NCBI GenBank assembly: GCA_021779915.1
Contig: JAJXZR010000015.1
Coordinates: 4,521-68,520 of the forward strand
DNA length: 64,000 nucleotides
Source: a bacterium
GTDB taxonomy: Bacteria; Patescibacteriota; Minisyncoccia; CAIUEV01
Direction of reading: 5' to 3'
Shown: piece after piece, positions 6,840 through 52,146 of the stretch
Layout: every line of letters starts with the position of its first letter
Position numbering within the stretch: position 1 is the stretch's first letter
Translations under genes and position numbers: made by a program
The notes under the pieces: generated by a model
What the model was told of the DNA's origin: nothing
Databases searched by the model: none
Seen by the model: only the letters and a program-made list of their open reading frames with translations

Positions 6840-7956
6840 ATAAAATTGTTTCATATTTTTTTGGTGAAATTTTTCCAGCAATAAATTCTTGGTATAGGCT
6901 TTTTGATTTTATCTCTTTTTTTAGTGTGTTTTCACCCCCATTGACTTTTATGGATGGGAGATTTTCTATTGCATCTTTAACTGAAATATATTTATTTTCG
7001 TTGATAATTACTTCCTGCGGATAGCATGCTCTGGGATCTCCTCTTAAGACTCCTATTATAACAACTCTCTTCCTTTTTTGAGGAACCCCAAACTTGACTG
7101 CAAACATTTTTTTTCCCTCTATTTTATATCCGAGGTTTGAAAAACTTTCTTTTACACTATTAAAAGTTTTTCCATTATTACTTGTTAAAATACCTTCGAC
7201 ATTTTCAACTAAAATTACCTTCGGCTTTATTTTCCTTACTATTTCAACAAATTCTTTAAACAAAAAATTCCTAGGATCATCCACCAACCGCTTTCCAGCA
7301 TAGGAAAATCCCTGGCAGGGAGGACCTCCAACTATAATATCTATTTTTTTGTTTTTTATACTTTCATAAAGCTTTTCTTTGATGTCTTTTTTTGTAATAT
7401 CTCCTTCGATAAGCACTGTATTTTTGTGGTTGTTTTTATACGTTTCACATGCTGATTTAAAATTATCATTAGCAACAATAATTTTGTAACCAGCCCACTC
7501 AAAGCCCTTGCTTAAACCACCTGAACCACAAAAAAGATCGAGAACATTTTTCGTGTTAGTATATTTCTTAATTTGTTTCGCAATAAAATAAGCAAGCAAG
7601 GGTGGAACGGCGTTTCCAATTTGTTTACAAAGTGAGGTTTTTGAGCCATAGAAAATATAATCATCTGGGAATGACTGTAATCTGGCCGCCTCTCGAGCAC
7701 TTATAACCCTGTCGTCTTTTGGATGAATATACGCCCCATTTCCAGGTCTATTAAAATAGGTTGTTATTGTATAACTTGGTTTATTCCAACTTAATCGTCC
7801 ATACAGAGTTGTTCTTCCACCAGTTCTTCTTATTTGTTCAAGTCTTTTTGATGGAACATTTAAGGGAATGTTTTTCCAGTTTCCACCTTCTGGAATTGCT
7901 ACAACCATCTTTAAGTCATTTTCACTGAGTGGATAAGTTACATGATTATAAAGCAT
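6826..7956 (-). CDS. DNA (cytosine-5)-methyltransferase, circularly permuted motif order
   Basis: Motif IX (RLQSFPDDY) and X (QIGNAVPP) come near the N-terminus. They are followed by motif I (LDLFCGSGG), IV (GGPPCQGFS) and VI (LVENVEG). Confidence 0.85.
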   Translation of the reverse strand: MLYNHVTYPLSENDLKMVVAIPEGGNWKNIPLNVPSKRLEQIRRTGGRTTLYGRLSWNKPSYTITTYFNRPGNGAYIHPKDDRVISAREAARLQSFPDDYIFYGSKTSLCKQIGNAVPPLLAYFIAKQIKKYTNTKNVLDLFCGSGGLSKGFEWAGYKIIVANDNFKSACETYKNNHKNTVLIEGDITKKDIKEKLYESIKNKKIDIIVGGPPCQGFSYAGKRLVDDPRNFLFKEFVEIVRKIKPKVILVENVEGILTSNNGKTFNSVKESFSNLGYKIEGKKMFAVKFGVPQKRKRVVIIGVLRGDPRACYPQEVIINENKYISVKDAIENLPSIKVNGGENTLKKEIKSKSLYQEFIAGKISPKKYETILFKNP

Positions 7957-9811
7957 AATTCAAACTTTTATTTATAGTGCTTATCAAATTTTCCTCCTTA
8001 TATCTGCTTAGAATAAACCTTATTTCGTCTTTCTTTAAGCGATATAATTTAAAAATTTCAAGATTTAGTCTGGCGACATCATTATCGTTTTTACTTTTTC
8101 TGATTTTATCAACCAGATTTTCAATTTTAATTTTTTGATTTTCATTTGGAATAGCAATTGGTAACTCAGCGATTTCGTAATTGCTTATGTGATTGTTTGA
8201 GTTAGTTATTTTGAATCTCCAATCTAAAAGCAACGAGTTTAAAACTCCCAACATATAATCAAGGGAAATATTTTTGTTCTTAAAAAGGCTTTCTCTTTTG
8301 CAAATATAATTACAAGAATTTCCAAGTATTACATTTGCAGGAATTATCGCAAATTTTAGCCTTTTATTCCCATGAATGTTTGAAACTTGTTGACATACCA
8401 ACCGATCTTTAAACAAATGTTCTTTTTTGCCATTTAGCTTAAAAAGAAAATTTTCATCTACATACAGCCTTCCAAATTCAAAATTAAATTCAGCTATATT
8501 GATTCCTCTTAGTAAAGGATAATTAGTTTTTTGTTCAGTGATGAATGACTTGTCTAAAGTTAAGTCTAATTCCCCACGAAGATTATGAATATCTGTAAAA
8601 GATTTTACTTTTGGACAGCTATTTATCTTTTCAAGCACACTCACTCCTTTTTCATTTTCAATAATTATGGGTACTGACTCAGAAATTGCTTTTATTGTCT
8701 TTATTTTTATTTTTACACTTGTTTTCTCAAAATCCATAGCATTTATAACCTCCGGATTTATTTCTAAAATCGTACCTTTATGATTTTTATTTAAAGAGAA
8801 AAAACAAAAGGCTTGGGAAATATCTGGAAAAAATTCATTTTTTTCCGGAATTATATAAATTTTTGAAAAAGAATAATTTTCTATTATTCTTTTTCTTAAT
8901 TTTTCACCTTGACGATCGTTTAATAGCGTTATTGGTATAATTAGACCTATTTTACTATTTTTGTTTGTATAGTTTTCAATTATTTCTTCTACAAATATTT
9001 TATAGTAATTTAAAGTTCCTTCGTTATACTTATAAATATTATTTCGTTTAATAAAATCTATGAGATCTTTAATATTAATTAAACTATTTTCTTTGTTTTT
9101 TAGATATTTATTTGAATTTTCCTTTAACAATTTATAAGGTGGATTTGTTAAAACCATATCAAATCCATCTTCTACATTGAATATTTTTTTTGGATCATTT
9201 TTGTTTATTTTACCATTACTAAAACCAAAAAGAATATCGCCTGAATAAAAATTTTTTTCACTGTTCGTTACTTTAATTCTATATTTGGAGCTTACATATA
9301 GCGGAATAATTTTTTTTAACAAGATTATGGCATCATGGTCTATATCGGCACAAAAAATATTATTGACAACTTTTTGTGCTTTATCTCTATTCAAATCAGA
9401 TAAATTGTTGAAAATATAATCAATAAAAGATAGAACAAATATCCCTATTCCAACGCAAGGTTCTAAAAATTTTATATCTAAAAGATTTTTTTCTTTAATA
9501 AATTTAAAAGCTTCTTTTGTGATCTGTTTAGCGATTTCATAATCAGTGTAGTATATGCCAAAATGCTTTCTTTCGTCTGTTTTAAACATTTTTTTATTTT
9601 CTTTTTCTTTTTGATGAATCAACCCGATAAGCTGAACAACAGAAATTAAATCAATTTCATTTTTATTTATCAAATTTTTATACAAAAAGTCATCAATAAC
9701 ACTTTTGATTTGGGGCTCATCGCTCATAAAACTCAAAAGTTTGTAGGTAAGATCCTCTTTGTTTCTATATTTAACACATATAGTATTGTATATTTGAAAA
9801 ATTTTTTTCAT
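7946..9811 (-). CDS. N6-adenine DNA methyltransferase, gamma class, with C-terminal target-recognition region
   Basis: Motif X (HFGIYYTDYEIAKQI), motif I (LEPCVGIGIF) and motif IV (TNPPY). 621 aa. It overlaps the m5C methyltransferase gene by 11 nt, consistent with an operon. Confidence 0.8.
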   Translation of the reverse strand: MKKIFQIYNTICVKYRNKEDLTYKLLSFMSDEPQIKSVIDDFLYKNLINKNEIDLISVVQLIGLIHQKEKENKKMFKTDERKHFGIYYTDYEIAKQITKEAFKFIKEKNLLDIKFLEPCVGIGIFVLSFIDYIFNNLSDLNRDKAQKVVNNIFCADIDHDAIILLKKIIPLYVSSKYRIKVTNSEKNFYSGDILFGFSNGKINKNDPKKIFNVEDGFDMVLTNPPYKLLKENSNKYLKNKENSLINIKDLIDFIKRNNIYKYNEGTLNYYKIFVEEIIENYTNKNSKIGLIIPITLLNDRQGEKLRKRIIENYSFSKIYIIPEKNEFFPDISQAFCFFSLNKNHKGTILEINPEVINAMDFEKTSVKIKIKTIKAISESVPIIIENEKGVSVLEKINSCPKVKSFTDIHNLRGELDLTLDKSFITEQKTNYPLLRGINIAEFNFEFGRLYVDENFLFKLNGKKEHLFKDRLVCQQVSNIHGNKRLKFAIIPANVILGNSCNYICKRESLFKNKNISLDYMLGVLNSLLLDWRFKITNSNNHISNYEIAELPIAIPNENQKIKIENLVDKIRKSKNDNDVARLNLEIFKLYRLKKDEIRFILSRYKEENLISTINKSLNYAL

Positions 9812-9895: not shown

Positions 9896-10576
9896 TCAAG
9901 CATAAGAAAACTTCAATGTTGCCGGCGTTTTGAGAACATCAATTACTTTACCGTTTACAATAAAGTTGTCTTCTGGGGTGAGATAAATTGGTTTGTGGTT
10001 CGAGTCAGTTGATTCAGGGAAAAGACCAATAGTGTTGGCGTCTATTCGAATAAATGTTTTAATAGCTACCAATCCGTCGACCGTCGCTAGCACCTTGTCA
10101 CCGTTTCTGAAATCTTTATATTCTGAGTCTATGAGGACAAAATCTCCGCTTTCAATATTTTTCCCGCGAACAATTGCTTTGTCCATTGAAGTCCCTGAAA
10201 CTTCTATTGCAAAAATTCCATCAGAAATTCTTTTAGTAAAAAGCCTTTTGGAAATTTTGAGAAATCCTTCAATGTTCTCCTGAGCAAAAAAAGACGGGCT
10301 CCCGGCGCTAGCCGTTCCCAGAATTGGAATATTAGTAAATTGTTTTTTTGACTCCTTACAAAATTTTATTTCCTTGTTTTCCGGGTCTCTCTCGATAAAT
10401 CCTTTTTCTTTCAAATTTTTGAGATATAAGAAAATACTTCCCAAACTTTTAACTTTTAACCCTTTTTTCACCGCTTCTTTCTGAATTTCCCTCACTGTTG
10501 GCATTTTGCCATTTTTCTGAAACAGTTCCTTAACCGCCCCCAGCACAATTTCTTCTTTTTTGGTTAGTAGGTTCAT
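9896..10576 (-). CDS. lexA: LexA-like repressor (S24 peptidase)
   Basis: N-terminal winged HTH. C-terminal S24 domain with SGTSM (Ser nucleophile) and the downstream Lys region (GDKVLATV...AIKTF). Confidence 0.8.
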   Translation of the reverse strand: MNLLTKKEEIVLGAVKELFQKNGKMPTVREIQKEAVKKGLKVKSLGSIFLYLKNLKEKGFIERDPENKEIKFCKESKKQFTNIPILGTASAGSPSFFAQENIEGFLKISKRLFTKRISDGIFAIEVSGTSMDKAIVRGKNIESGDFVLIDSEYKDFRNGDKVLATVDGLVAIKTFIRIDANTIGLFPESTDSNHKPIYLTPEDNFIVNGKVIDVLKTPATLKFSYA

Positions 10577-10631: not shown

Positions 10632-10844
10632 TGTCATCCCGGGCTTGACCCGGGATCCAGTTAGTCTTATTAATTATTCTAATTGTTCTAATTAACCTAA
10701 TTGTTCTAAACAAAATCACAAGAACCAATTTTTTAAAAAATTTATTTATTGATACTTGGTGCTTTTTTAGAATAATTAGTATAATTAGGTCAATTAGAGT
10801 AATTTTACGTTCTCCTGGATCCCGGGTCAAGCCCGGGATGACAC
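10632..10844. mobile_element. MITE-like nested palindromic element, subtype A (copy 2)
   Basis: tgtcatcccgggcttgacccgggatccag ... cctggatcccgggtcaagcccgggatgacac. About 85% identical to copy 1, including the internal inverted repeat. Confidence 0.65.
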
Positions 10845-11038
10845 GTAATTGTTAATTTTCTCTGTTTAAAACATTATAAAATTTGTGAATTGAAAATTGT
10901 TTGTCGCCTAGTCGACCCGCCTCTGGAGGGAAAATTGGAAATTAGAAATTGAAAATTTTGTCCTGTTCAGTTGTTCAATAATTCTTACACTTTCATTAAA
11001 ATATGATAAATAAAACTCGTCAAATTTTTAAATTCCAT

Positions 11039-24211: not shown

Positions 24212-24236
24212 AAAAAGAGCGGGAACCCGCTCTTTT
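24212..24236. terminator. Bidirectional rho-independent terminator
   Basis: aaaaagagcgggaacccgctctttt hairpin between convergent genes. Confidence 0.55.
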
Positions 24237-24480
24237 AAAATTTCTTGTAAGTTTTTTCTGATCTGCGTTCGATTGCTAGAACAAATATTTTTTTATTTTG
24301 GTCTTTCTTAAAAATAATTCGAATATTTCCTTTTCTTATTCTAAAAATATCTTGATTGCCTCTCAATCTTTTTATATCAAGACCGAAGTAAGCATTATTT
24401 TTTATCAAGACCAGGATTTTTCTTACTTGGATTTTTTCCTTCGAATTCAATTTCTGCAGAGCTTTAGTTATTTTATCCAT
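24235..24480 (-). CDS. RelE/ParE-family type II toxin
   Basis: 81 aa. ...DIFRIRKGNIRIIFKKDQNKKIFVLAIERRSEKTY matches the RelE pattern (YRLVY.ID...V.V..I..R....Y). Confidence 0.6.
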   Translation of the reverse strand: MDKITKALQKLNSKEKIQVRKILVLIKNNAYFGLDIKRLRGNQDIFRIRKGNIRIIFKKDQNKKIFVLAIERRSEKTYKKF

Positions 24481-24482
24481 AA

Positions 24483-24713
24483 TTAAAGTCGGGATAAAAG
24501 ATCATCTATTTCCACTCCGCCTTTCTGAATTTTGGTAAAATCCAAAACTTCTTCCCACTGCTCCTCGGAAGGGGGACTGATTTTAAAAATAGGTTTTAAG
24601 TGTCTGAGCACAAGAAAAGATTCTCCTTTTGAAACCCTTTTTACATATTTTTCAGTATTCTCACGAAGATCTCTAAGTCCAACAACATTGTTCATTCTTT
24701 TTATGTTAATCAT
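24483..24713 (-). CDS. Phd/YefM-like antitoxin
   Basis: 76 aa. VGLRDLRENTEKYVKRVSKGESFLVLRHLKPIFKI. Separated from the toxin by a 2-nt gap. Confidence 0.55.
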   Translation of the reverse strand: MINIKRMNNVVGLRDLRENTEKYVKRVSKGESFLVLRHLKPIFKISPPSEEQWEEVLDFTKIQKGGVEIDDLLSRL

Positions 24714-24717
24714 TAGT

Positions 24718-25932
24718 TTAACAAAAGATTAACATATTTTTGTAAGCTGTCAAAAAAACGAGGAGTTTAGTGGCAAGTAAAAAGTTGCAAATTACAAAAA
24801 TTTTTCTTTCCACTTTTAGCTTGCTACTTGCAACTAATTTCCCCACTATCTTCCTTCTCAATCTAAACGTATTCGCCTGTTCAAACATTCCATAATAAGA
24901 ACAAAAACCGCAGAAAGCCTTTCTTTTTTGTTGTGCTGAAATTTCTCCAAGTCTTGAAATCTTTATCCATTCTTCCAGCTTTTTATAAGCGTTTCCCTTG
25001 GTTCGATTTTTTATATACACCCTGTAAGGCAAAATGATTCGACCAAGAAACATCACTCCCTTGCTGTAGTGTTGAAGATAAAATTTTTTTCGATGGAGGT
25101 GAAGGAATAGATTGTTGCTGAGATATTCATCCAGAACAGGGAAAAATAGTTTTAGAAAATCCTTGTCTTCGTGAACAAACAGAAGATCGTCGACATATCG
25201 ACCGTAATATTTACATCCCAGAATATTTTTAATGAAATGATCAAAATCATTGAGATAAATGTTGGCAAAAAGTTGGGAGGTCAGGTTTCCGATTGGCAAG
25301 CCTCTGTCTTTTTCTGAAAAAAACAAGCTTTTTGATTTGGGAAGGCCAACCCAGTTTTCCTTTCTTCCTTTAACGACACAGTTTTTGGTTGGGTCGTTGA
25401 AAAGGACTTTTCGTGTAAGCCAGAGGACCAGTTCTTTGTCAAAACCAATCCTGAATTCAAATTTTTTAAGAATTTTCTCAATTTTTTCAAAAAGAATGTT
25501 CTTGTCGATTGACATAAAATAGCCTGAGATGTCGAGTTTCAGAATGTAGCAGTTCTGTTGATAATTTTTTGAGCAGGAACGGATAAAATGCTCCGCTCTT
25601 TTTCCACCACAAGAAGTCCCTCTACCGAAACGGCAACTGTAACTGTCGTTTATAAAAATCCTTTCACAAAGGGGATTGAGATAGTTGAAAATCAAATGGT
25701 GGACAATTCGGTCACGGAAATCACCGGCAAAAATTTCTCTTTTGACCGGAGAGAAAGAAACAAAACAAATGCTTCGGGAAATCTCATATTTCCGACTAAC
25801 AATTTCCTTGTAAAGTCGAAAAAGTTCCTTTTCATAATTAAGTTCAAACCTTATGGCGCTTGCAGTTTTTCTCTTGTGCTTCCGCGCATCGAAGTAAGCT
25901 TGGAAAAGATCGAGGAGGAGTTGGGGAGGCAT
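24718..25932 (-). CDS. Diversity-generating retroelement (DGR) reverse transcriptase
   Basis: RT motif 3 KLDISGYFMSID, motif 4 GLPIGNLTSQLFANIYL (DGR-specific IGxxxSQ in place of QGxxxSP), motif 5 GRYVDDLLFV, motif 2 SCRFGRGT. The likely true start is MPPQ at 25932; the ORF-track start at 25971 lies inside an octamer repeat. Confidence 0.85.
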   Translation of the reverse strand: MPPQLLLDLFQAYFDARKHKRKTASAIRFELNYEKELFRLYKEIVSRKYEISRSICFVSFSPVKREIFAGDFRDRIVHHLIFNYLNPLCERIFINDSYSCRFGRGTSCGGKRAEHFIRSCSKNYQQNCYILKLDISGYFMSIDKNILFEKIEKILKKFEFRIGFDKELVLWLTRKVLFNDPTKNCVVKGRKENWVGLPKSKSLFFSEKDRGLPIGNLTSQLFANIYLNDFDHFIKNILGCKYYGRYVDDLLFVHEDKDFLKLFFPVLDEYLSNNLFLHLHRKKFYLQHYSKGVMFLGRIILPYRVYIKNRTKGNAYKKLEEWIKISRLGEISAQQKRKAFCGFCSYYGMFEQANTFRLRRKIVGKLVASSKLKVERKIFVICNFLLATKLLVFLTAYKNMLIFC

Positions 25933-26105
25933 AGATAGATGAGTAGCAAGTAGGAAAGTAGCAAGTAGCAAGAATTATGAGAGTTGCAAGTTGCAAGTTG
26001 CAAGTTGCAAGTTGCAAGAAAAAATTCTTGTTACTTATTACTTGTTACTTTTTCTCTTGCTACTTGTTACTTGTTACTTGCCACTTGTCATACTTGCTAC
26101 TAATT
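25933..26105. repeat. Octamer tandem-repeat array (GTAGCAAG/GTTGCAAG x ~9 followed by CTTGTTAC/CTTGCTAC x ~8) forming an imperfect long hairpin
   Basis: agtagcaagtaggaaagtagcaagtagcaag...gttgcaag x5 ... cttgttacttattacttgttac...cttgctacttgttacttgttacttgccacttg. Lies between the RT start and the TR. Confidence 0.6.
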
Positions 26106-26143
26106 TCCGGGCTCCTCCCCTTACGGTGAGGAAGCATTTTTGT

Positions 26144-26326
26144 CAGTGCTTGAGGCAACGAACCGAAAAGCCGTTCGCCTTCGAATTCAGGTTCCGATTG
26201 ACCGTGGCGTTACTCGAATTCAGATTGCGATTCCATGCGGACGTACCACTGGGGGAAGACGACCAAAAGTTGGCGTTCGTCCCGAGATTGGCAAAGGAGC
26301 CATCGGTATTGCGGTTGCCGGCTAGC
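26144..26326 (-). other. DGR template repeat (TR)
   Basis: 183 bp, about 88% identical to 27047-27229. In coding sense every non-synonymous mismatch lies at an A of an AAC/AAT (Asn) codon in this copy. Confidence 0.85.
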
Positions 26327-26581
26327 GCTATAATAATCATTAAACTATTTACCCTTTGCCAAAGGCAAAAAATAAACGAGACCTTGCTGGGAAAGACCTC
26401 CATACCTCGCTTAAAGTTCGTCTAAACGAGAAGATTATTGGACTGACGAAATGGCACTCTTACCTGCGCCGTAGCAACAAGCAACTCCGGCCCGAACGAG
26501 TAACAAGTAAAGAAAGTTGCAAGTTACAAGAAGAAAGTAGTAAGTTGCAAGAATTATGAGAGTTGCAAGAAAAAATTCTTG

Positions 26582-26926
26582 TCACTTGCTACTCGTTCTC
26601 CATCCTGTCAACTGTTTGCTCACTCTCTCCAACTTCAAATTCAACGTGACGAACTTGTCTATATCGATCAGTTTGAGATCATTGGATAATCGCAGGAATA
26701 ATCTGATTGTTTCGACGTTTTCCCGCGCCTTTTGAATGTTTTCTTTTCTTTTTTCAAAAGAGCTGTTGGCTCGATAGATGTTCACGATCATCTCAATCAT
26801 TTCTTTCTTCATACTCTCTCCCAGGGTGAATTTGTATTCCCGAGAGAAGTTTCTGATGAATTTGAACAAATCCAGCAGAAGCTCATAACTGTCGTGGTAA
26901 ACTGGAAGATCGCTGGAAAGGGACAT
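26582..26926 (-). CDS. avd: DGR accessory variability determinant (Avd-like four-helix-bundle protein)
   Basis: 114 aa, basic, predicted all-helical. Sits between the target/VR and the TR/RT, as in canonical DGR cassettes. Confidence 0.65.
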   Translation of the reverse strand: MSLSSDLPVYHDSYELLLDLFKFIRNFSREYKFTLGESMKKEMIEMIVNIYRANSSFEKRKENIQKARENVETIRLFLRLSNDLKLIDIDKFVTLNLKLERVSKQLTGWRTSSK

Positions 26927-27007
26927 GGGGGGGAGTTACAAGTTGTAAGTAAAAAGTGGCAAGATTTTTTTCTTGCAACTTACTACTTGTAACTTGTAAC
27001 TCCCCCC
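26927..27007. repeat. GC-clamped hairpin (ggggggagttacaagttgtaag...cttgtaacttgtaactcccccc) immediately 3' of the VR
   Basis: Arms of about 35 nt built from GYWRCAAG octamers and closed by a G7/C7 clamp. Lies between the target stop (27046) and the avd start. Confidence 0.55.
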
Positions 27008-27045
27008 TCATTTTTAAAGAGTCAAAGAGTCAAAGAGTCAAAGAG

Positions 27046-29250
27046 TCAGTCCTTGAGGCAACGGACAGAAAAGCCGTACGCCTTCGAATTCAGGGTCCGA
27101 TAGACCGTGGCGTTGCTCGAATTCAGATCGCGATGCCATGCAGACGTACCACTGGGAGAGGAAGACCAAAAGTAGGCGTTCGTCCCGAGAAGGGCAAACG
27201 AGCCATCGGTATTGCGGTAGCCGGCTAGCAGGCCAGTAAAGTTAGAAGTTCCTCCTGACTTCAATTTGGTGCCGGCAGTGGAACAATCCCAAGTTCCGCT
27301 TCGGTTGGCATCGCAGGTTTGACCGGTGTCTTTCAAATAATTTTCCAGTTCGTACTGCTGGGCGTCGGTCGGAATATGCCAGCTCGTGGGACAGATGCCT
27401 TGAGCTCCGGGGGTTGTGGAATAGGCCATGGCTTCATCCCACTGGTAAAGGCCGCCATAGGTGTTGCAATTGTTGGTATCGTTGCTATAGCACCATTTCT
27501 CGACAGTGCCGTTGTTGGTTGGCATCGTAGAACCACTGGCAAGCATCGTGCCGAGTTTAAGGTTTTGTTTCATCCAGCATTGGTTGCCGATAAGGACAGT
27601 GTCATAGACATTGTTTTCGGCGTCCAACACCTGACTGACACCGCAAACAAAATCAGAGACCACGCAGTTGCCTGATCCATCGCATCGTTTGTTGAAACCG
27701 CAAGTTTGGGAATTGTTGATGTTGGTCCAGTCGCCCACTTGACCGGAAGACGAGACGGTTTTTTGCTGGCAATAATAGTCGCCCACTCGGCCATCGCCAT
27801 TTCTGAAGTTGGTAAAGTTGCTGGCATTGACCAATGTCGCACTAATATTGGTAGCGTTGACCGTAGTCGCACCAACGTTTCCGGTCGTCGTGATATTGCC
27901 GCTTCCCAAACTGAAATTGCCCGATCCGTCCGTGACGGGAATGATTGAATTTCCGCCAGTAGCAGAAGTCTCTTTATCATCCAATTTATCGGCATTGAGG
28001 TTGGTAACTTTGGTGGTGGAAGCGACGGTGAGCGGGGAAGTACCGGTTGCCACAGTTGAAGTCAGGGTGGAAGCGGAAACAGAACTGGCAGCGATGGAAC
28101 CGGTGGTGGAAATGGAAATGTCAGATTTTAAGTCTGATCCGGTGATGGTTCCGTCCGCAATGGAAGCGGAATTGACGCTGGCAGTTTCAATGATGCCAGA
28201 AGTGTTGACGGAAAAAACTGAATTGTCACTGTTATTGGTAATTTTGAGTGGTGAAGCCGATTGGGAAGAAGCCATCTTGAGAATGGTTACCACGGTTGGA
28301 GCCTGGTAGGCAACGGTTTGACTGGAAGCTGGATCGGTGTGGATGGTTTCATTGGTGAGTTCTGAGATAGCCGTTTGGGTGTTAGTAGAAGCAATTTGAG
28401 TGGTCGGCGTGAAAGAAATGGCAGTAGCGGGATGAGAGGAAGCTGCATCTCGGTTTTGGAGATCATTATGATTGACGGTTGCTACATTAGCCACTTTATG
28501 CCAGGTGTTGTCAGAGTTGTCACAGCGGTAAATCCAGTTTTCATCTTTCACAAGCCGGGATTGCCCGTCAGATCCACTGTTACAATCCGGCAAATCGGAA
28601 TGGGAAGTGACCGGATCTTTCCATTTGAGATTGTTGATGTTGGTGGAAAGCTGGTTGTCCACATAGGCTTTGTTAGCGGCGTCAGTGTCGCTGGTGGGAG
28701 TTGCGATGTTGGTGATTTTGTTGGTTTCCAGGGATAAGGGTTTGGAGAGTTTAAAATTCTCACTGCCTTTGTCATAGGTAAGGGAACGGGCAGAGGAACC
28801 GAAAAGAAGGTTGATGTCACTTCCTGTTTGCCCAATAGTGAAGGTGTTTTGGTTGGTACCGGAATCAGTGTTCTGGTCATGAATTTGGGAGATGTTTTTG
28901 TTGCCTAAAGCGATGTTTGAATCGTTATTGTCTACTAGTTCTCCCAGTTTGTTTTTTTCGGTGTTGGTGGGATAATCGGGAATGTTAAGTTTACTTCTAT
29001 CAATACTGGCATCTGAGGCAATATCTTCGTTTTTAATCGTTCCGTTTTTGATTTTGTCTCCGGTGATAAGATCGTCCGCAATCACCCTGAGGTTTGCGAT
29101 GGCTCCGTCCTTGAGTTGCGCATCCCCAATGGACTGAGTAACAATCCTAATTTTCTGTTTAACAGCCTTTCTAAGGGAAGCATTGGAAAAAGAAGTGACG
29201 GCTAGAACGGTGAGGAGGGAAATGAGGAAGGTGGTTTTTGGTTTGGACAT
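27046..29250 (-). CDS. DGR target protein: secreted Ser/Thr-rich protein with C-terminal FISUMP-like (C-type-lectin fold) variable domain
   Basis: Signal peptide MSKPKTTFLISLLTVLAVTSFSNASL. C-terminal NQCWMKQNL...YGGLYQWDEA...CPTSWHIPT...LLAGYRNTDGSF..FWSSS...GFSVRCLKD, with the VR covering the last ~60 codons. GC-richer than flanking DNA. Overlapping ORFs in other frames are rejected. Confidence 0.85.
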   Translation of the reverse strand: MSKPKTTFLISLLTVLAVTSFSNASLRKAVKQKIRIVTQSIGDAQLKDGAIANLRVIADDLITGDKIKNGTIKNEDIASDASIDRSKLNIPDYPTNTEKNKLGELVDNNDSNIALGNKNISQIHDQNTDSGTNQNTFTIGQTGSDINLLFGSSARSLTYDKGSENFKLSKPLSLETNKITNIATPTSDTDAANKAYVDNQLSTNINNLKWKDPVTSHSDLPDCNSGSDGQSRLVKDENWIYRCDNSDNTWHKVANVATVNHNDLQNRDAASSHPATAISFTPTTQIASTNTQTAISELTNETIHTDPASSQTVAYQAPTVVTILKMASSQSASPLKITNNSDNSVFSVNTSGIIETASVNSASIADGTITGSDLKSDISISTTGSIAASSVSASTLTSTVATGTSPLTVASTTKVTNLNADKLDDKETSATGGNSIIPVTDGSGNFSLGSGNITTTGNVGATTVNATNISATLVNASNFTNFRNGDGRVGDYYCQQKTVSSSGQVGDWTNINNSQTCGFNKRCDGSGNCVVSDFVCGVSQVLDAENNVYDTVLIGNQCWMKQNLKLGTMLASGSTMPTNNGTVEKWCYSNDTNNCNTYGGLYQWDEAMAYSTTPGAQGICPTSWHIPTDAQQYELENYLKDTGQTCDANRSGTWDCSTAGTKLKSGGTSNFTGLLAGYRNTDGSFALLGTNAYFWSSSPSGTSAWHRDLNSSNATVYRTLNSKAYGFSVRCLKD
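27047..27229 (-). other. DGR variable repeat (VR) at the 3' end of the target gene
   Basis: The TR-encoded Asn positions are replaced by Tyr, Thr, Tyr, Asp, His, Tyr, Leu and Tyr. Non-A differences are all synonymous, except in the extreme 3' (IMH-like) end. Confidence 0.85.
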
Positions 29251-29372
29251 GGGTTAGTTTAAAATTTCCAATTTCTAATTTTCAATTTTTTCGCCCGAGG
29301 CGAGTCGCCTATGGAGACAAACAATTTTCAATGACAGAATAATTCAATACTTCAAGTAATATCCGACTTATG

Positions 29373-29537
29373 TGTCATCCTCGGCGTGTCGACCGGGGAT
29401 CCAGGAGGATAATATTAGTCTAATAAAATGTCGGCTTGTTTAGTTTTCTGTAAATGCACATAGAAATAACACTCTATTAGTCTAACCTGGATTCCCGCCG
29501 GAGTTTATCCTCGTGAAAACGGGGACAGGAATGACAC
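29373..29537. mobile_element. MITE-like element, subtype B (right terminus degenerate)
   Basis: gtgtcatcctcggcgtgtcgaccggggatccaggaggataatattag ... cctggattcccgccgg...aatgacac. Preceded by a CAATTTTC block (29263-29340). Confidence 0.55.
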
Positions 29538-29616
29538 GTTTTTTTCCTTTGGGCGGGCACAAGACCCGCCCCTACGTTCTTCTTTTCCCTTTTCCCCTTA
29601 TTCTTTCCCTTAATTC

Positions 29617-30234
29617 CTATCTACTCCACATAATAAGACTTCTTGTCCCATACATCTTCATCGTGTTGCTATTGAAATATCCAAGAGCCTCCGCTTTGGT
29701 GAGGGGATTGTTTTGTTGTTTTATTGGTTTGTGTATCGTGTCGGTGTTGTCTTCGAGGTTGACAGTGACCGCTCCTTTTTTGGTTTGAATGATGAAGGTA
29801 TCTCCATCGTCAGAGACATCTCCCATGGAACCTTGAATTTTGGTATAACAAATGGAAAGGTCGGTGAGTTTTTTGGCGAAATACACGCCTTCCGGCGAGA
29901 CGTTCTTGTCCGACACCACCGTCTTGATTGAGTCCCCGATTTGAACTTCGTTTTCAGTGAGCCTTCCGCCCGAACTGCGGAGGAAATTGGAGGAATAATA
30001 ATTGATAATGTACGTTGACCCAAAAACATTACCGCCCTTTTTATTTTTTTTATCCAAACTTTTAATCGTAACAAGGCTATTATCCGTATCAATAGCCAAA
30101 ACCGTCCCAATTATGGTGTGGGCGTGCGATTTGGCGAGGACAGAGGAGGTATTAGTGAAAAGTAACAAGTAACAAGTTGCAAGAAAAAAAGTAGCAAGAA
30201 TTTTCTTGTTACCCATCATTTTTCCTCTTGCCAC
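29617..30234 (-). CDS. Secreted hypothetical protein
   Basis: Signal peptide partly encoded by the octamer repeat (LATFFLATCYLLLF). The likely ATG start is MMGNKK at 30219. Confidence 0.5.
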   Translation of the reverse strand: MARGKMMGNKKILATFFLATCYLLLFTNTSSVLAKSHAHTIIGTVLAIDTDNSLVTIKSLDKKNKKGGNVFGSTYIINYYSSNFLRSSGGRLTENEVQIGDSIKTVVSDKNVSPEGVYFAKKLTDLSICYTKIQGSMGDVSDDGDTFIIQTKKGAVTVNLEDNTDTIHKPIKQQNNPLTKAEALGYFNSNTMKMYGTRSLIMWSR

Positions 30235-30313
30235 TCGAGAGAGAGAGAGAGAGAGTAGTGCATGTTTTTGTAAGAATATTTTTTAAATTATGGTTCATGG
30301 GGATTTGTATTAA

Positions 30314-30585
30314 TTACAAGTTACAAGCTACAAGCCACAAGCTACAAGCTACAAGCTACAAGCTACAAGCTGCAAGAAGACCCTTGCTACTTGCTACTTG
30401 CTACTTGCTACTTGCTACTTGCTACTTGCTACTTGCTACTATTTTAAATTAAAAATTGGGGTTGTCAAAAAAACGATAAGTTTAGTATCAAGTAAAAAGT
30501 TACAAGAAGAAAGTAGCAAGTTACAGGTAACAAGTTACAAGAAAATTCTTACCACTTGCAACTTGCCACTTTTTACTTGCTACTT
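30314..30585. repeat. Large octamer tandem-repeat arrays (GCTACAAG x ~8; CTTGCTAC x ~9; then mixed GTWRCAAG units)
   Basis: ttacaagttacaagctacaag...ctacaagctgcaag / cttgctacttgctac... Same family as 25933-26105 and 26927-27007. Confidence 0.6.
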
Positions 30586-31845
30586 ATAACCCGCCGCTTC
30601 TCCCGCCGCGTACCCCGTACTCCAACAAATTTGGAGATTAAAGCCTCCGGTTGGACCGTCAAGATCTAGAATTTCTCCGGCAAAAAATAAATTGGAAATA
30701 ATTTTTGATCTCATTGTCCTAGGATCCACTTCCTTCAAATCCACTCCGCCACTGGTTATCACCGCGATTTCATATCCCATCGGCTCTGAAACAGTGACAG
30801 TCAACTCTTTGAGGAAATGAAGCAATTTTTTTCTCTCTTCTCTGGAAATAGTTCCCAGTTTCTTGTGCGGGTCGATACCTGACATTTGAACAGCTAAATC
30901 AATCATTTTGCGAGGTAAAAGGTCGGGAAGATAGTTGATGAAATCTTTGTTAACATTTGTTTCGAAATCTTTTTGAAGCCTTTTGTCGAGAGTTGGATAA
31001 TCCAGTGCCGGTTTGAGATCGATTTGAATCGTCACTTCTCCTTTTTTGAGAAGCTCCACCACTTTCTTACTCAGATCGAGAATGATTGGTCCGCTCACAC
31101 CAAAATGGGTAAACAACATTTCTCCAAACCTAGAATCTTGTTTTTTTCCTCCAACAAAAACAGTAGCTCTTGCGTTTTTAAGGCTCAATCCCTGAAGCCC
31201 TTTTGTCCAAGATTCTCGTGTTTTAAGAGGTACTAGGGCAGGGAAGGTATTAACCAATTTGTGCCCCATTTTTTGTGCAAAATTATATCCGTCTCCAGTA
31301 GAACCCGTGGCAGGATATGATTTGCCTCCCGTTGAAAAAATAAAAGAATCGGCATAAATTTTACGATTTTTGAGCTCAACATATTCGATTTTTTTGTTTT
31401 TTACTTTAAAATCCACAATTTTCTCTCCCAAAATTATACTGGCATTGTTTTGTTTTAAATAGTCTACAAGGGTATCCAAGACATCTTTTGATCTATCGGA
31501 AACAGGAAAGACTCTTTTTCCTCTTTCAATCTTAGTTTTTACTCCCTTTTTCTCGAAAAAATCAATGATTTCACTGGGTCCAAATTCCGATAAAGAAGAG
31601 AAAAGAAACTTTCCCTTTTTACCTAGTTTATCGATAAATTCTTTCATATCAAAAGTGGCGTTCGTCAGATTGCAACGCCCCTTGCCAGTAATTAAAAGTT
31701 TTTTTCCAAGGACTTTATTTTTTTCAATCAAAACCACTTTTTTTCCTAGTTCCGCCACTCTTCCAGCCGCCATCATACCAGCAGGTCCACCCCCTACAAC
31801 GGCTACGTCGAAATAGTCATGAGTTTCTTTATTGATAGACATCAA
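30580..31845 (-). CDS. HI0933/BaiN-family FAD-dependent oxidoreductase
   Basis: N-terminal dinucleotide fold DVAVVGGGPAGMMAA. 421 aa with family-typical length and GKGRCNLTN segment. Confidence 0.8.
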   Translation of the reverse strand: MMSINKETHDYFDVAVVGGGPAGMMAAGRVAELGKKVVLIEKNKVLGKKLLITGKGRCNLTNATFDMKEFIDKLGKKGKFLFSSLSEFGPSEIIDFFEKKGVKTKIERGKRVFPVSDRSKDVLDTLVDYLKQNNASIILGEKIVDFKVKNKKIEYVELKNRKIYADSFIFSTGGKSYPATGSTGDGYNFAQKMGHKLVNTFPALVPLKTRESWTKGLQGLSLKNARATVFVGGKKQDSRFGEMLFTHFGVSGPIILDLSKKVVELLKKGEVTIQIDLKPALDYPTLDKRLQKDFETNVNKDFINYLPDLLPRKMIDLAVQMSGIDPHKKLGTISREERKKLLHFLKELTVTVSEPMGYEIAVITSGGVDLKEVDPRTMRSKIISNLFFAGEILDLDGPTGGFNLQICWSTGYAAGEAAGYK

Positions 31846-32000
31846 TTAAGTTTAATTTGAAATTCTGATTACGTAGAATTAGATTACCTTTTTTTGGTTT
31901 TGACTAGGAAAATTAAGAAAATTTTCAATTTCTAATTTTCAATTTTCAAACAATTTTCAATTTATTAATTTCCTAATTTTATAAACAATACTATTCCAGT

Positions 32001-32152
32001 GTGTCATCCCGGGCTTGACCCGGGATCCAGGAGGATAATCTTAGCTTAATAAAATCTTAATTTGTCTAGTTTTTTAGCAATACGCATTAAAATAACATTC
32101 TGTTAGTCTAATTTTGTTTCCTGGATCCCGGCTCGGGGGCCGGGATGACACA
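32001..32152. mobile_element. MITE-like element, subtype B
   Basis: gtgtcatcccgggcttgacccgggatccaggaggataatcttagc ... cctggatcccggctcgggggccgggatgacac. Flanked on both sides by CAATTTTC/GAAAATTG blocks. Confidence 0.65.
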
Positions 32153-32233
32153 CAAGACGGATATTGTTTGAAACATTGAATCATTCCATCATTGAAAATT
32201 GTTTGAAAATTGTGAATTGAAAATTGAAAATTT

Positions 32234-35617: not shown

Positions 35618-35661
35618 AGGATTAGCATAGCACGAAAAAACAAGAAATGTTCATACCACAA

Positions 35662-35883
35662 TATCATCCCGGGTTTGACCCGGGATCCAGAAGGATATAA
35701 AATTGCTCTAATTAACCTAATTATACTAATTAACCTAAAAAAGCACCAAATACCAAACAATAAAAAAATAAATCTTAGAAATTAGTTTTTGGGATTTTGT
35801 TTAGAATAATTAGGTCAATTAGAGTAATTAGAATAATTAATGAGTCTAACCTGGATCCCCGGTCGACACGCCGGGGATGACAC
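35662..35883. mobile_element. MITE-like element, subtype A (copy 3)
   Basis: atcatcccgggtttgacccgggatccag ... cctggatccccggtcgacacgccggggatgacac. The internal inverted repeat is identical in design to the copies at 1152, 10632 and 46711. Confidence 0.65.
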
Positions 35884-40886: not shown

Positions 40887-40940
40887 TTGGTTATGGTTAA
40901 TTGATTAATTTTCAATTTCCAATTTTTAAACAAAAAATAC

Positions 40941-41038
40941 GTGTCATCCTCGGCGTGTCGACCGGGGATCCAGAAAAGTAATATTTTATTAGTCTAATAT
41001 AATTCTCCTGGATCCTCGCTTTCGCAAAGATGACACAC
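40941..41038. mobile_element. MITE-like element, subtype C (short, ~98 bp)
   Basis: gtgtcatcctcggcgtgtcgaccggggatccagaaaagtaatattttattagtctaatataattctcctggatcctcgctttcgcaaagatgacacac. Confidence 0.65.
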
Positions 41039-41108
41039 TAGAAGATATTGTTTATCTAATTTTTAAATTAAGAAATTGAAAATTTATTGAAAATTGAAAA
41101 TTGGTCAT

Positions 41109-42326: not shown

Positions 42327-42395
42327 AAATTAATTTAATTTTCAAACAATTTTTAATTGATTAATTTTACAATTAGATAAACAATATCTTCTAGT

Positions 42396-42491
42396 GTGTC
42401 ATCCTTGCGAAAGCGAGGATCCAGGAGAATTATATTAGACTAATAAAATATTACTTTCCTGGATCCCCGGTCGACACGCCGAGGATGACAC
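42396..42491. mobile_element. MITE-like element, subtype C, inverted copy
   Basis: Exact reverse complement (few mismatches) of 40941-41038. The adjacent about 80 bp (aattagataaacaatatcttctag / ctagaagatattgtttatctaatt) is also mirrored. Confidence 0.65.
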
Positions 42492-42558
42492 ATATTTTTT
42501 GTTTAAAACATTTGAAAATTAATCAATTAAAAATTGTTTGAAAATTGGAAATTGGAAA

Positions 42559-43245
42559 TTATTTTTTCTTATTTTTCCTATCGCTCTCAATTTTCCCGTC
42601 TCTAATTGAAATTATTCTTTCGGCGTAGTCAGCCACTTCGTCTTCGTGAGTGATGATTACTATGGTATGACCTCTATCATGCAATTCTTGAAAATATTCC
42701 ATAACAAGCTTGCTGGTTTTTGAATCGAGATTTCCCGTAGGTTCGTCTGCCAGTAATATTGAAGGGTTGTTGATGAGAGCTCTGGCAATTGCCACTCTTT
42801 GCATCTGACCTCCAGAAAGTTGATTGGAAAGATTGTAAAATTTACTTTCTTCCATTCCCGCGTATTTAAGGGCTTCTCGTGCCCGAGTTTCCCGCTCTTT
42901 TATCGGAACGCCTGAGTAAAGTAGTGGTAACATAACATTTCGAAGAACCGTCGTTCTTTTTAGCAAATTGAAAGACTGAAAAACAAAACCGATTTTATCT
43001 TTGCGAAGCTCAGACAATTCATTTTCCTTAAGCTTTGAAACTTCCTTTCCATCCAAAAAATACTCTCCACTAGTGGGATTGTCCAAAGCTCCTATAATGT
43101 GCATCAATGTTGACTTTCCAGAACCACTGGGACCAATAATCGAAACAAATTCTCCTTTTTCAACAAAAAAAGTCACATTATTAAGCGCCACTGTCTCAAC
43201 ATCTCCATTTTTGTAAATTTTAGTCAGATTTCGGCAATCGATCAT
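42559..43245 (-). CDS. ABC transporter ATP-binding protein (MacB-type ATPase)
   Basis: GPSGSGKST, LSGGQMQRVAIARAL, LLADEPTGNLD. Confidence 0.9.
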   Translation of the reverse strand: MIDCRNLTKIYKNGDVETVALNNVTFFVEKGEFVSIIGPSGSGKSTLMHIIGALDNPTSGEYFLDGKEVSKLKENELSELRKDKIGFVFQSFNLLKRTTVLRNVMLPLLYSGVPIKERETRAREALKYAGMEESKFYNLSNQLSGGQMQRVAIARALINNPSILLADEPTGNLDSKTSKLVMEYFQELHDRGHTIVIITHEDEVADYAERIISIRDGKIESDRKNKKK

Positions 43246-43252
43246 TAAATCA

Positions 43253-43361
43253 GTTTATCAAGTTTATAAAGTTATAAAGTTCATAAAGTAAAGATTCAGA
43301 TAAACATTAATTAGAAAAATCAAATCCGATCAACTTTATAAACTTTATGAACTTGATAAAC
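43253..43361. repeat. Inverted repeat built from TTTATAAAG units in the macA-macB intergenic region
   Basis: gtttatcaagtttataaagttataaagttcataaagtaaag ... ctttataaactttatgaacttgataaac. A related motif lies at 44740-44790. Confidence 0.5.
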
Positions 43362-43375
43362 TTTTTAACTAATTG

Positions 43376-45985: not shown

Positions 45986-46118
45986 AAATGACGAATTACT
46001 AATGACGAATGTCGAATCAATGACGAAATTCAAAAATCAAAATATTTTAATCTTCGGATCCTAGATTTGATTCGACATTCGTCATTAGTAATTCGTCATT
46101 TATTCGTCATTCATCATT
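45986..46118. repeat. AATGACGAA-unit inverted repeat between the sigma and anti-sigma genes
   Basis: aatgacgaattactaatgacgaatgtcgaatcaatgacgaa ... ttgattcgacattcgtcattagtaattcgtcatttattcgtcatt. Same family as 51979-52124. Confidence 0.55.
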
Positions 46119-46692: not shown

Positions 46693-46710
46693 GAAAAGTT
46701 TTATTAATAT

Positions 46711-46929
46711 GTGTCATCCCCGGCGTGTCGACCGGGGATCCAGGAGAGTGGAAAATTACTCTAATTAACCTAATTATACTAATTGACCTAAAAAAGCACC
46801 AAATACCAATAAATAAATTTTTTTAAATTGGTTCTTGGGATTTTGTTTAGAATAATTAGGTTAATTAGAGTAATTAGAATAATTGGTGAGACTAACCTGG
46901 ATCCCCTGTCGACACGCCGGGGATGACAC
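46711..46929. mobile_element. MITE-like element, subtype A (copy 4)
   Basis: gtgtcatccccggcgtgtcgaccggggatccaggagagtg ... cctggatcccctgtcgacacgccggggatgacac. Confidence 0.65.
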
Positions 46930-46946
46930 AAAGAAAACCCATCAAT

Positions 46947-50376: not shown

Positions 50377-50530
50377 GTGCCATCCTCGGCGTGTCGACCG
50401 GGGATCCAGGAGGGTAGTATTAATCTAATAGAATGTTATTATGTTTAGTTTATTAACGATACGCACTAGGCGATAATTCTATCAGTCTAATCCTATTTCC
50501 TGGATCCCCGCTCGGGGGTGGGGATGACAC
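50377..50530. mobile_element. MITE-like element, subtype B
   Basis: gtgccatcctcggcgtgtcgaccggggatccaggagggtagtattaatc ... cctggatccccgctcgggggtggggatgacac. Confidence 0.6.
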
Positions 50531-51978: not shown

Positions 51979-52124
51979 GGAATGACGAAATCCGAATGAC
52001 GAATGACAAATGACAAATCAATCACAAATATCGAATATCAAAAAAATTTTGAGATTTGCCTGCCTGCCGGTAGGCAGGGATTTTAGATTTGATTTGTCAT
52101 TCGTCATTTGAAATTTGTCATTTA
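51979..52124. repeat. AATGACGAA/AATGACAAA-unit inverted repeat with central gcctgcctgccggtaggcaggga
   Basis: Same design as 45986-46118. Confidence 0.55.
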
Positions 52125-52146
52125 AATTATATCTGAGCGGATAATA

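Follow-up and report, generated by a model that had tools for sequence, protein, structure and literature searches.

Tandem heptamer hairpins in a diversity-generating retroelement operon of a Patescibacteria genome are missing from related retroelements

The 64-kb stretch of DNA analyzed here (contig JAJXZR010000015.1 of assembly GCA_021779915.1, positions 4,521 to 68,520; hereafter the window, whose own numbering is used unless another locus is named) comes from a member of the Patescibacteria and harbors a diversity-generating retroelement (DGR). Between and within the genes of the DGR lie inverted arrays of a short tandem unit, GYWRCAA, which form seven predicted hairpins designated S1 to S7. 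They are a new Patescibacteria example of tandem-heptamer hairpin repeats, a form of simple-sequence repeat, with an unusual operon-restricted distribution. On balance, we favor the explanation that the arrays are local, slippage-prone repeats of a genome-wide class that resembles the short tandemly repeated repetitive (STRR) sequences of cyanobacteria, and that they are not DGR machinery.

The operon and its seven hairpins

The DGR genes were identified from their Pfam domains (Fib_succ_major, bAvd, and RVT_1). All seven hairpins are found in one minus-strand gene string that comprises a promoter match, an open reading frame termed ORF201, the target gene with its variable repeat (VR), avd, the template repeat (TR), and the reverse transcriptase (RT) gene. 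The features are given below in minus-strand order, from the 5' to the 3' end.

30460-30590, minus strand: S7, a hairpin of heptamers that overlaps with an HI0933-like gene at its stop codon
30441-30468, minus strand: sigma-70-like promoter match TTGACA-16-TAAAAT, between S7 and S6
30305-30445, minus strand: S6, a very regular leader hairpin in which (GUAGCAA)8 is paired with (GCUUGUA)~8; a conserved leader follows
30237-30255, minus strand: (CT)9.5 tract after a conserved upstream ATG (30263), the second simple-sequence repeat in the ORF201 5' region
30150-30235, minus strand: S5, a heptamer hairpin over the Shine-Dalgarno sequence, the ATG at 30219, and the signal-peptide codons of ORF201
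29617-30219, minus strand: ORF201, encoding a conserved protein that is secreted; it precedes the DGR target as its operon partner
29251-29616, unstranded: palindrome resembling a miniature inverted-repeat transposable element (MITE), with AATTTYC arrays, between ORF201 and the target; a different repeat family
27046-29250, minus strand: DGR target gene with a C-terminal Fib_succ_major domain; VR at 27045-27229
27016-27048, minus strand: (GACTCTTT)4 tract, starting at the VR stop codon; in contrast to the heptamers, this tract is conserved among related DGRs
26928-27007, minus strand: S4, with 37-nt arms and a G6/C6 clamp, directly before the avd start
26582-26926, minus strand: avd (bAvd)
26494-26598, minus strand: S3, a hairpin of heptamers that separates the avd stop from the RT-7-like RNA
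26326-26491, minus strand: RT-7-like structured RNA (Rfam RF03028), directly upstream of the TR, a full-length sub-threshold match
26142-26326, minus strand: TR, aligned to the VR over 185 nt; a small hairpin follows
25933-26105, minus strand: S2, a heptamer hairpin of ~170 nt between the small post-TR hairpin and the RT start codon
24718-25932, minus strand: DGR RT (RVT_1), with relatives in the Patescibacteria
24745-24850, minus strand: S1, a short heptamer hairpin with the tail ACTAAACTCCTCGTTTTTTTGACA, within the last ~35 RT codons

The promoter match scores 11 of 12 to the consensus and is the best between 24 and 32.5 kb, as a consensus match only; it is identical at 29 of 29 positions in the orthologous locus L215 and similar in L214. 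An ORF201 orthologue stands directly upstream of a Fib_succ_major/VR-type gene in L216 and also in L214, where the junction occupied here by the MITE-like element measures 30 nt. Behind RT and S1, the string continues with a phd/parE-like pair and ends at a canonical bidirectional terminator (24213-24236). The pair, at 24235-24713 on the minus strand directly after RT, corresponds to a Phd/YefM-like antitoxin and a ParE-like toxin, and its Pfam matches are weak and below the curated cut-offs.

An initial annotation of the window had described arrays of the octamer GYWRCAAG and its complement at six places. All six are present, and Tandem Repeats Finder (TRF) assigned a period of 7 bp to every site, which rules out a single 8-bp unit: the unit is GYWRCAA, with the variants GTAGCAA, GTTGCAA, GTTACAA, GTAACAA, and GCTACAA, and the supposed octamers share one base with their neighbors. 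The segment 30314-30585, taken for one very regular array, does hold array sequence but is composed of two hairpins, S6 and S7, with the promoter match between them. The general plan of a site is a forward array, a CAAGAAWWWWTTCTTG-like center, and a reverse array, and six of the seven sites are mainly non-coding. A CRISPR array, already dismissed in that annotation, was rejected here as well, since the units are arranged head-to-tail with no unique spacers between direct repeats. The arrays were recovered in three independent assemblies (NCBI GCA_021833695.1, one from ENA, and one from Logan) and are therefore not assembly artefacts.

On both strands of the window, GYWRCAAG has 63 matches, compared with 9.8 +/- 3.4 in dinucleotide shuffles (shuffle maximum 21). 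The 5.8 kb from 24.77 to 30.59 kb contain 52 of the 63, and the remaining 11 represent chance level, with a density of 0.155 per kb in the window outside the cluster. Together with 7.3 kb beyond the left window edge, in which zero matches were found, ~71 kb of one 146-kb contig of the host genome were covered, of which the ~65 kb other than the cluster show the motif at background density. The clustering around the DGR is real and sharper than originally proposed: all seven sites fall inside one co-directional unit that includes ORF201, a conserved DGR-associated upstream gene.

The sites were folded as minus-strand RNA and compared with shuffled sequences. Pairing and folding agree with the proposal that the forward and complementary blocks form long hairpins: five of the seven sites are far more stable than their shuffles (z-scores of -7.7 for S2, -4.5 for S3, -10.0 for S4, -7.3 for S6, and -5.0 for S7), and the folds of S1 (z -1.7) and S5 (z -2.5 to -3.5) are weaker. 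S2 folds at -53.9 kcal/mol over 150 nt, and S4, with arms that are 86% complementary, mostly A/T, and joined by a 6-nt loop, at -51.6 kcal/mol. In S6, each unit contributes 6 bp and one mismatch, and 6 of 7 positions are paired only in the minus-strand (sense) RNA, which folds at -65.1 kcal/mol with 15 G.U pairs versus -34 for the antisense RNA. S3 overlaps the final ~6 avd codons, the Shine-Dalgarno sequence is paired within the S5 fold (z -3.5), and the tail of S7 holds U7 and the TTGACA -35 box.

Two pairs of hairpins are paralogous. S1 and S7 share 43 nt at 88% identity, with the tail ACTAAACTYMTCGTTTTTTTGACA, and S2 and S3 share ~108 nt at ~80% identity; in both pairs the common segments are internal only. 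This paralogy indicates that whole hairpin modules were copied locally. The GYWRCAA hairpins could be assigned neither a transposase nor clear terminal inverted repeats, nor were target-site duplications noticed, the last without a systematic search, and scans of viral contigs for the S1/S7 tail and for the conserved promoter gave no match. Two other identities were considered and discarded. Intrinsic terminators are not indicated, as a terminator scan listed only small central sub-stems in S4 (minus strand) and S5 (plus strand), and the U7 behind S1 and S7 follows more than 10 nt past the stem end. At a permissive threshold, Rfam matched the hairpins to plant and animal microRNA precursor models only, far below the gathering scores, which reflects the presence of long hairpins alone.

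Comparison with related retroelements

The comparison set consisted of 83 related DGR loci totaling 453 kb, with RT identities of 50 to 85%. None of them has GYWRCAA arrays, and GYWRCAAG occurs in them at 0.14 per kb, which corresponds to background. Inverted tandem-array pairs number 12 in the 64-kb window versus 6 in the 453 kb of related loci, where only 3 of the 83 loci have any such pair, mostly kilobases from the cassette.

The spacing of the cassette leads in the same direction. The spacer from TR to RT has a median length of 47 nt in the 33 relatives with a recognizable TR versus ~199 nt here, 173 nt of which are S2. In the closest RT relative, L124 (85% RT identity), the TR-RT junction carries a MITE end and GAAAATT arrays, and another relative has a different palindromic insertion at this junction. 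In the relatives, the RT-7-like RNA comes soon after avd, at a distance of 6 nt in L129; here S3 fills the space between the two. As judged from these alignments, S2 and S3 are insertions into a conserved layout of avd, RT-7-like RNA, TR, small hairpin, and RT. Both are missing from the relatives, in which the positional conservation of a DGR cis-element was thus not seen. The earlier proposal of a structural or regulatory part for the arrays in the retroelement, or of an aid to its mobility, is not supported: related DGRs lack the arrays, S2 and S3 are inserted, the closest relative has another repeat family at the TR-RT junction, and, as shown below, hairpins of other units fill many non-DGR gaps of this genome and GYWRCAA-type arrays are found in many phyla with no RT nearby.

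By the same comparison, non-coding elements that are conserved in this Patescibacteria DGR family can be told from later insertions. The former comprise the RT-7-like RNA upstream of the TR, the small hairpin just after the TR, and the (GACTCTTT)n tract with a palindrome after the VR. The RT-7-like match in the window scores 40.2 bits (E 5e-7 to 3e-8) relative to a gathering score of 116.8, and further matches upstream of the TR in L135 (50.9 bits) and L129 (43 bits) are likewise below the gathering score, with E values of 1e-6 to 1e-9; it nevertheless looks like a real conserved structured RNA of this DGR family. Two-unit versions of the (GACTCTTT)n tract occur at the same place in L135, L127/L136, and L129, accompanied by a palindrome that follows the tract in L135 and L127/L136 and precedes it in L129. 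The tract is not present after the TR and is a candidate target-side recognition element.

An alternative reading takes the hairpins for DGR cis-elements. S4 would then be the post-VR hairpin or cruciform that guides cDNA integration, S3 and S2 would delimit or structure the TR-containing template RNA, and S1 and S7 would mark the ends of a mobile DGR cassette. All seven sites are inside the DGR operon, S3 and S2 exactly bracket the RT-7-like RNA, the TR, and the small hairpin, S1 and S7 are direct paralogous copies at both ends of the unit, and a GYWRCAA hairpin in locus L216 adjoins a DGR target. Inverted repeats downstream of the VR are a general DGR requirement, and the characterized post-VR hairpin or cruciform has a GC-rich stem of 7-10 bp and a 4-nt GRNA loop and is located 4-34 bp from the VR (Guo et al. 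2011; PMC3240598). S4 resembles it in being an inverted repeat shortly past the end of TR/VR homology, and it is found where related DGRs have the palindrome after (GACTCTTT)n. However, the palindromes at this position in the relatives are unrelated and GC-rich, and S4 has A/T-rich heptamer arms of 37 nt and a 6-nt loop. Stem and loop thus depart from the characterized structure. The stem of S4 begins 38 nt past the VR/target stop codon, where TR/VR homology ends, compared with the 4-34 bp cited, and S4 belongs to a set of seven similar hairpins that are mostly remote from the VR. Apart from the absence of the arrays from all 83 relatives and the inserted position of S2 and S3, the S2 unit number differs between near-identical genomes and one junction within the unit holds a different repeat family, the MITE-like element. 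Recent activity of the DGR is itself doubtful. Over 185 nt, TR and VR differ at 18 positions, 9 of them at TR adenines and the other 9 being C/G, G/T, and T/C differences, and the VR is identical across all assemblies compared. The non-adenine mismatches suggest drift, and the DGR may lack recent activity. Taken together, we consider a role of the hairpins as DGR cis-elements decidedly unlikely.

In the orthologous locus L214, a remnant of the RT N-terminus (MPQLLFDLFQAYFEARKHKRKT...) is located beside avd at 10280-10370; ORF201, the target, and avd are kept, and there is no intact RT. This locus looks like a decaying DGR.

Unit turnover and the operon leader

The window was compared over 21.2 kb with two other assemblies of the same population, L121 and L122, at the level of assemblies and not of reads. 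These near-identical sequences are distinguished by one single-nucleotide polymorphism, three changes of +/-1 heptamer, and one change of +/-1 CT. Of the heptamer changes, two affect S6, one in each arm, and the third affects S2; those in S6 occur in L121 and L122, and S2 differs by +/-1 GTTGCAA in L122, in which the (CT)n tract is changed as well. It is the most perfect tracts that vary, as slippage predicts.

Between orthologues, the hairpins at the S5 and S6 positions differ in their units. The promoter, a segment of ~45 nt, the (CT)n tract, and the Shine-Dalgarno region of the leader are conserved, and the S6 position is occupied by a GTAGCAA/AGCTTGT hairpin here, by an AAGGGGA/CTTTCCC hairpin in L215, and by none in L214. 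At the S5 position, the window, L214, and L215 all have a hairpin in which the purine-rich Shine-Dalgarno region is paired with pyrimidine-rich signal-peptide codons; its center is conserved and its arms differ, being of the AAGGGGA/CTTTCCC type in L214 and L215. In L215, AAGGGGA units span the leader and the ORF201 3' end.

The coding consequences of the arrays differ from gene to gene. The initial annotation had regarded the N-terminal peptides encoded by the repeats as spurious in two open reading frames. This holds for the RT, where the extension from TTG 25971 to ATG 25932 is spurious, and does not hold for the frame at 29617..30234, in which the heptamers follow ATG 30219 (Shine-Dalgarno AAGAGGA) and encode a signal peptide, MMGNKKILATFFLATCYLLLFTNTSSVLA. 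In orthologues, unrelated signal peptides take this place and are likewise followed by the mature protein with its conserved AKS..GTV..IDT start. At its other end, the RT gene reads through S1: homology to nine relatives stops near residue 365, and the repeat supplies the final ~35 residues. For annotation, this implies that such hairpins, which should not be called DGR parts, CRISPR arrays, or genes, give rise to false extensions of open reading frames but in one case also to a genuine signal peptide encoded by the repeat.

The (CT)n tract behind the upstream ATG is conserved in L214 and L215. This ATG is in frame with ORF201 in L122, which has one CT fewer, and in L215, whereas the window, L121, and L214 have it in another frame; ahead of the mature protein, it is the sole ATG of L214 and L215. 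The arrangement looks like a frameshift-type phase switch on the gene that heads the DGR operon.

A comparable leader is known from Haemophilus influenzae hmw1A, where an (ATCTTTC)n repeat, placed between promoter and start codon, forms a long transcribed hairpin in the 5' untranslated region (5'-UTR) that is processed by RNase III and whose repeat number is variable between strains (PMC12721329). Similarly, the S6 heptamers are located between a promoter match, of consensus type only, and the start of the secreted-protein gene ORF201, and S6 is a predicted sense-RNA hairpin with G.U pairs that shows a +/-1-unit polymorphism among the assemblies. The two differ in that the repeat of hmw1A constitutes the left arm only, opposite a G-rich right arm, whereas S6 has arrays in both arms, and in that six further GYWRCAA hairpins are found here outside any 5'-UTR. 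Extended to the whole operon, this parallel would make the hairpins functional modules of a phase-variable DGR operon. A double-strand-specific factor would cut or bind them at the junctions and split the transcript into ORF201, the target, avd, the RT-7-like RNA with the TR, and RT. Slippage in S6, S2, and (CT)n would switch or tune the hypermutation system and its secreted partner, and all hairpins of an operon would swap their units in concert (GYWRCAA here, AAGGGGA in L214 and L215), as an array-scale form of covariation. We regard a system of this kind as unlikely. A regulatory role at the level of the operon is possible, considering that orthologues again have hairpins where S5 and S6 stand.

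The opposite view, that the arrays are neutral or selfish by-products, must be weighed against the same observations. Slippage and local gene conversion in dispensable spacers, weakly purged, would then account for the arrays, and their recurrence would mark permissive sites. The unstable unit number, the overwriting of gene ends, the lack of an S6 equivalent in L214, the many unrelated unit families in the genome, and the fact that the repeats are missing from most relatives and from the same operons elsewhere are all compatible with it. Yet slippage alone does not account for the consistent pairing of forward and reverse arrays, S6 maintains its 6 of 7 paired positions in the sense RNA only, S5-type hairpins cover the Shine-Dalgarno sequence in three orthologues in spite of a full replacement of their arms, and the repeats are tolerated within operons with no obvious polarity. 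In view of these features, a purely neutral origin appears somewhat unlikely, while still deserving serious consideration.

Other repeat families and the nature of the arrays

The GYWRCAA hairpins are not the only ones of their kind in this genome. Inverted tandem arrays of other units, with periods of 7-9, make up at least four further families in the window, namely, CTAATTAWY, GAAAATT, AGTTTATAA, and AATGACG, and such repeats are present in ~16 of the 44 window gaps of at least 50 bp. The families tend to be local. The following arrays are representative.

43252-43368, unstranded: inverted AGTTTATAA/AACTTTATA array within an operon, separating its HlyD-like gene from its ABC gene
45987-46118, unstranded: AATGACG/ATTCGTC inverted array after a sigma-factor gene
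31920-32232, unstranded: AATTTTC/TTGAAAA arrays round a MITE-like palindrome, forming a nested hairpin of ~330 nt at about -120 kcal/mol

Arrays of AGTTTATAA stand on both sides of the HlyD-like gene, and in the relative L125 the HlyD-like, ABC, and MacB-like genes, between which the window has two arrays (42327-43375), are packed tightly. Further AATGACG/ATTCGTC copies are located at 51980-52128 and at 13649-13790 of L131, a locus extending to the left of the window, and two AATGACG hairpins fold better in the sense of the upstream gene. At 13532-13913 of L131, a nested hairpin with GAAAATG/ATTTTCC outer arms and AATGACG/ATTCGTC inner arms separates the NiFe hydrogenase small and large subunit genes. 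A MITE-like palindromic family with the ends GTGTCATCC(C/T)..GGATCCAGG often has internal CTAATTAWY 9-mers, the arrays of that family being inside the palindromes, and outer GAAAATT arrays, which flank them. Its copies were found at 1160-1380, 10640-10860, 29370-29540, 32000-32150, 35660-35880, 40935-41040, 42380-42490, 46710-46930, and 50385-50530; the nested hairpins reach ~330 nt, and the family also adjoins RT in the 85%-identical relative L124. Because related DGRs are devoid of the arrays and other hairpin families occupy further gaps in the same genome, we conclude that the arrays are fast-evolving genome repeats and not parts of the retroelement, at the level of confidence given for the favored explanation above.

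Unit types of the GYWRCAA kind recur across phyla. When species-representative genomes were scanned for three-unit arrays with the pattern CTTGYWRCTTGYWRCTTGYWRCTTG, the matches listed (at least 120) came from Pseudomonas, cyanobacteria, Omnitrophota, several Patescibacteria, and others, and the window's own genome was not among them; such arrays are thus common, and no RT was found in the 8-kb segments examined around matches listed. Two Omnitrophota loci illustrate the range: CAAGYWR-type and AATGACG-type heptamers are found side by side at L030 4362-4560, and L052 2410-2490 holds a CAGGCTR/CTTGYAG hairpin. This recurrence also bears on the notion that the arrays are iteron- or operator-like sites for a sequence-specific DNA- or RNA-binding regulator of the whole operon, which would account for the use of one unit sequence per operon. 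There is one unit family per neighborhood (GYWRCAA in the DGR operon, AAGGGGA in L215, and AGTTTATAA round the HlyD-like gene), and both S6 arms contain the identical GCTAC core on one strand. However, the same units occur in unrelated phyla, they are degenerate (GYWR), their 7-bp spacing is out of step with the helical repeat, and no candidate binding protein is encoded in the unit; regulator sites are therefore a very improbable explanation.

The closest known counterparts are the STRR sequences of cyanobacteria, tandem intergenic 7-bp units that form hairpins, including between the co-transcribed hupS and hupL genes; their function is unproven, and transcript stability or translational coupling have been proposed (PMC2670836). 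The arrays of this study share with them tandem 7-bp units in non-coding DNA and hairpins between genes, the hairpin between the NiFe hydrogenase subunit genes corresponds to the hupS-hupL position, and several cyanobacteria are among the CTTGYWRCTTGYWRCTTGYWRCTTG matches listed. They differ from STRR sequences in their Patescibacteria host, as evident from the RT relatives and gene content, and in their unit sequences. In addition, the arrays are systematically complement-paired into hairpins of 80-170 nt, are locally restricted, and are in some cases nested round MITE-like palindromes. In the literature on the Candidate Phyla Radiation, nothing relevant was found on palindromic intergenic repeats made of tandem units. 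The window thus extends STRR-like hairpins beyond the cyanobacteria to a reduced genome with local unit families and rapid changes in unit number, and adds as a further feature their recurrence at orthologous leader positions with complete sequence turnover.

Hairpins at gene junctions and inverted tandem arms are also known from other elements. Enterobacterial repetitive extragenic palindromic (REP) sequences and bacterial interspersed mosaic elements (BIME), as well as the RNase III sites of the phage T7 early genes, are intercistronic hairpins that stabilize the upstream mRNA or are cut and do not terminate transcription. The hairpin-at-every-junction layout is the same as here. REP sequences, however, measure 20-40 bp, have no tandem units, and exist in hundreds of copies genome-wide, and the T7 sites are single conserved structures, whereas the arrays described here are tandem-built and clustered; a processing role would be by analogy only. 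Foldback elements such as Drosophila FB have inverted arms made of short tandem repeats. Like foldback elements and MITEs, the arrays combine long inverted arms of tandem units with the paralogy of whole modules and insertion at gene ends and gaps. In contrast to the dispersed copies of MITE or REP type, all GYWRCAA hairpins in the ~71 kb examined fall into a single stretch of 5.8 kb.

Under the favored explanation, that of local STRR-like repeats, the copying of modules within the locus (S1 like S7, S2 like S3) would have filled nearly every junction of one transcription unit and, in places, overwritten gene ends: those of RT and avd, the HI0933-like stop codon, and the signal peptide of ORF201. 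Most likely, transcription of the operon would include the modules, each of which would then fold into a long RNA hairpin, and it is as hairpins in the operon transcript that the arrays, if they act at all, probably do so. They might serve as processing sites for a double-strand-specific enzyme of the RNase III type or as stabilizers of 3' ends, with S5 sequestering the Shine-Dalgarno sequence and S6 acting as a 5'-leader hairpin. The gain or loss of units would alter stem length and might thereby create heritable variation, possibly with effects on phenotype or fitness. If the hairpins and (CT)n do modulate expression, the DGR operon would be under the control of simple-sequence repeats.

Several observations weigh against this explanation. 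The GYWRCAA family coincides exactly with the DGR operon, and its distribution in this genome is known from ~71 kb of one contig. The only other case of this family found beside a DGR-type target is the GYWRCAA-type hairpin at L216 2803-2910, between an ORF201 orthologue (62% identity) and a DGR target that ends in VR-like ..FSVRCLKD*; a link of the family to this type of operon is therefore conceivable. A strong strand asymmetry is seen in S6 only, and for S2 and S4 it is the plus strand that gives the slightly better fold. Hypervariability is seen only in the most perfect tracts, as no array indels were detected in the other families over 15 kb, and the differences between assemblies could in principle be errors in repeats.

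Two further features of this genome were noted. At 17467-17830 of L131, a patch of ~360 bp has 58 mismatches and several indels between GCA_021833695.1 and GCA_027428295.1, which are otherwise identical over 15 kb; it is located within a hypothetical gene adjoining an AbiEii-like gene. The window also contains, at 5667-9811, a restriction-modification cluster composed of an Alw26I-type endonuclease, a C-5 cytosine methylase, and an Eco57I-type methylase.

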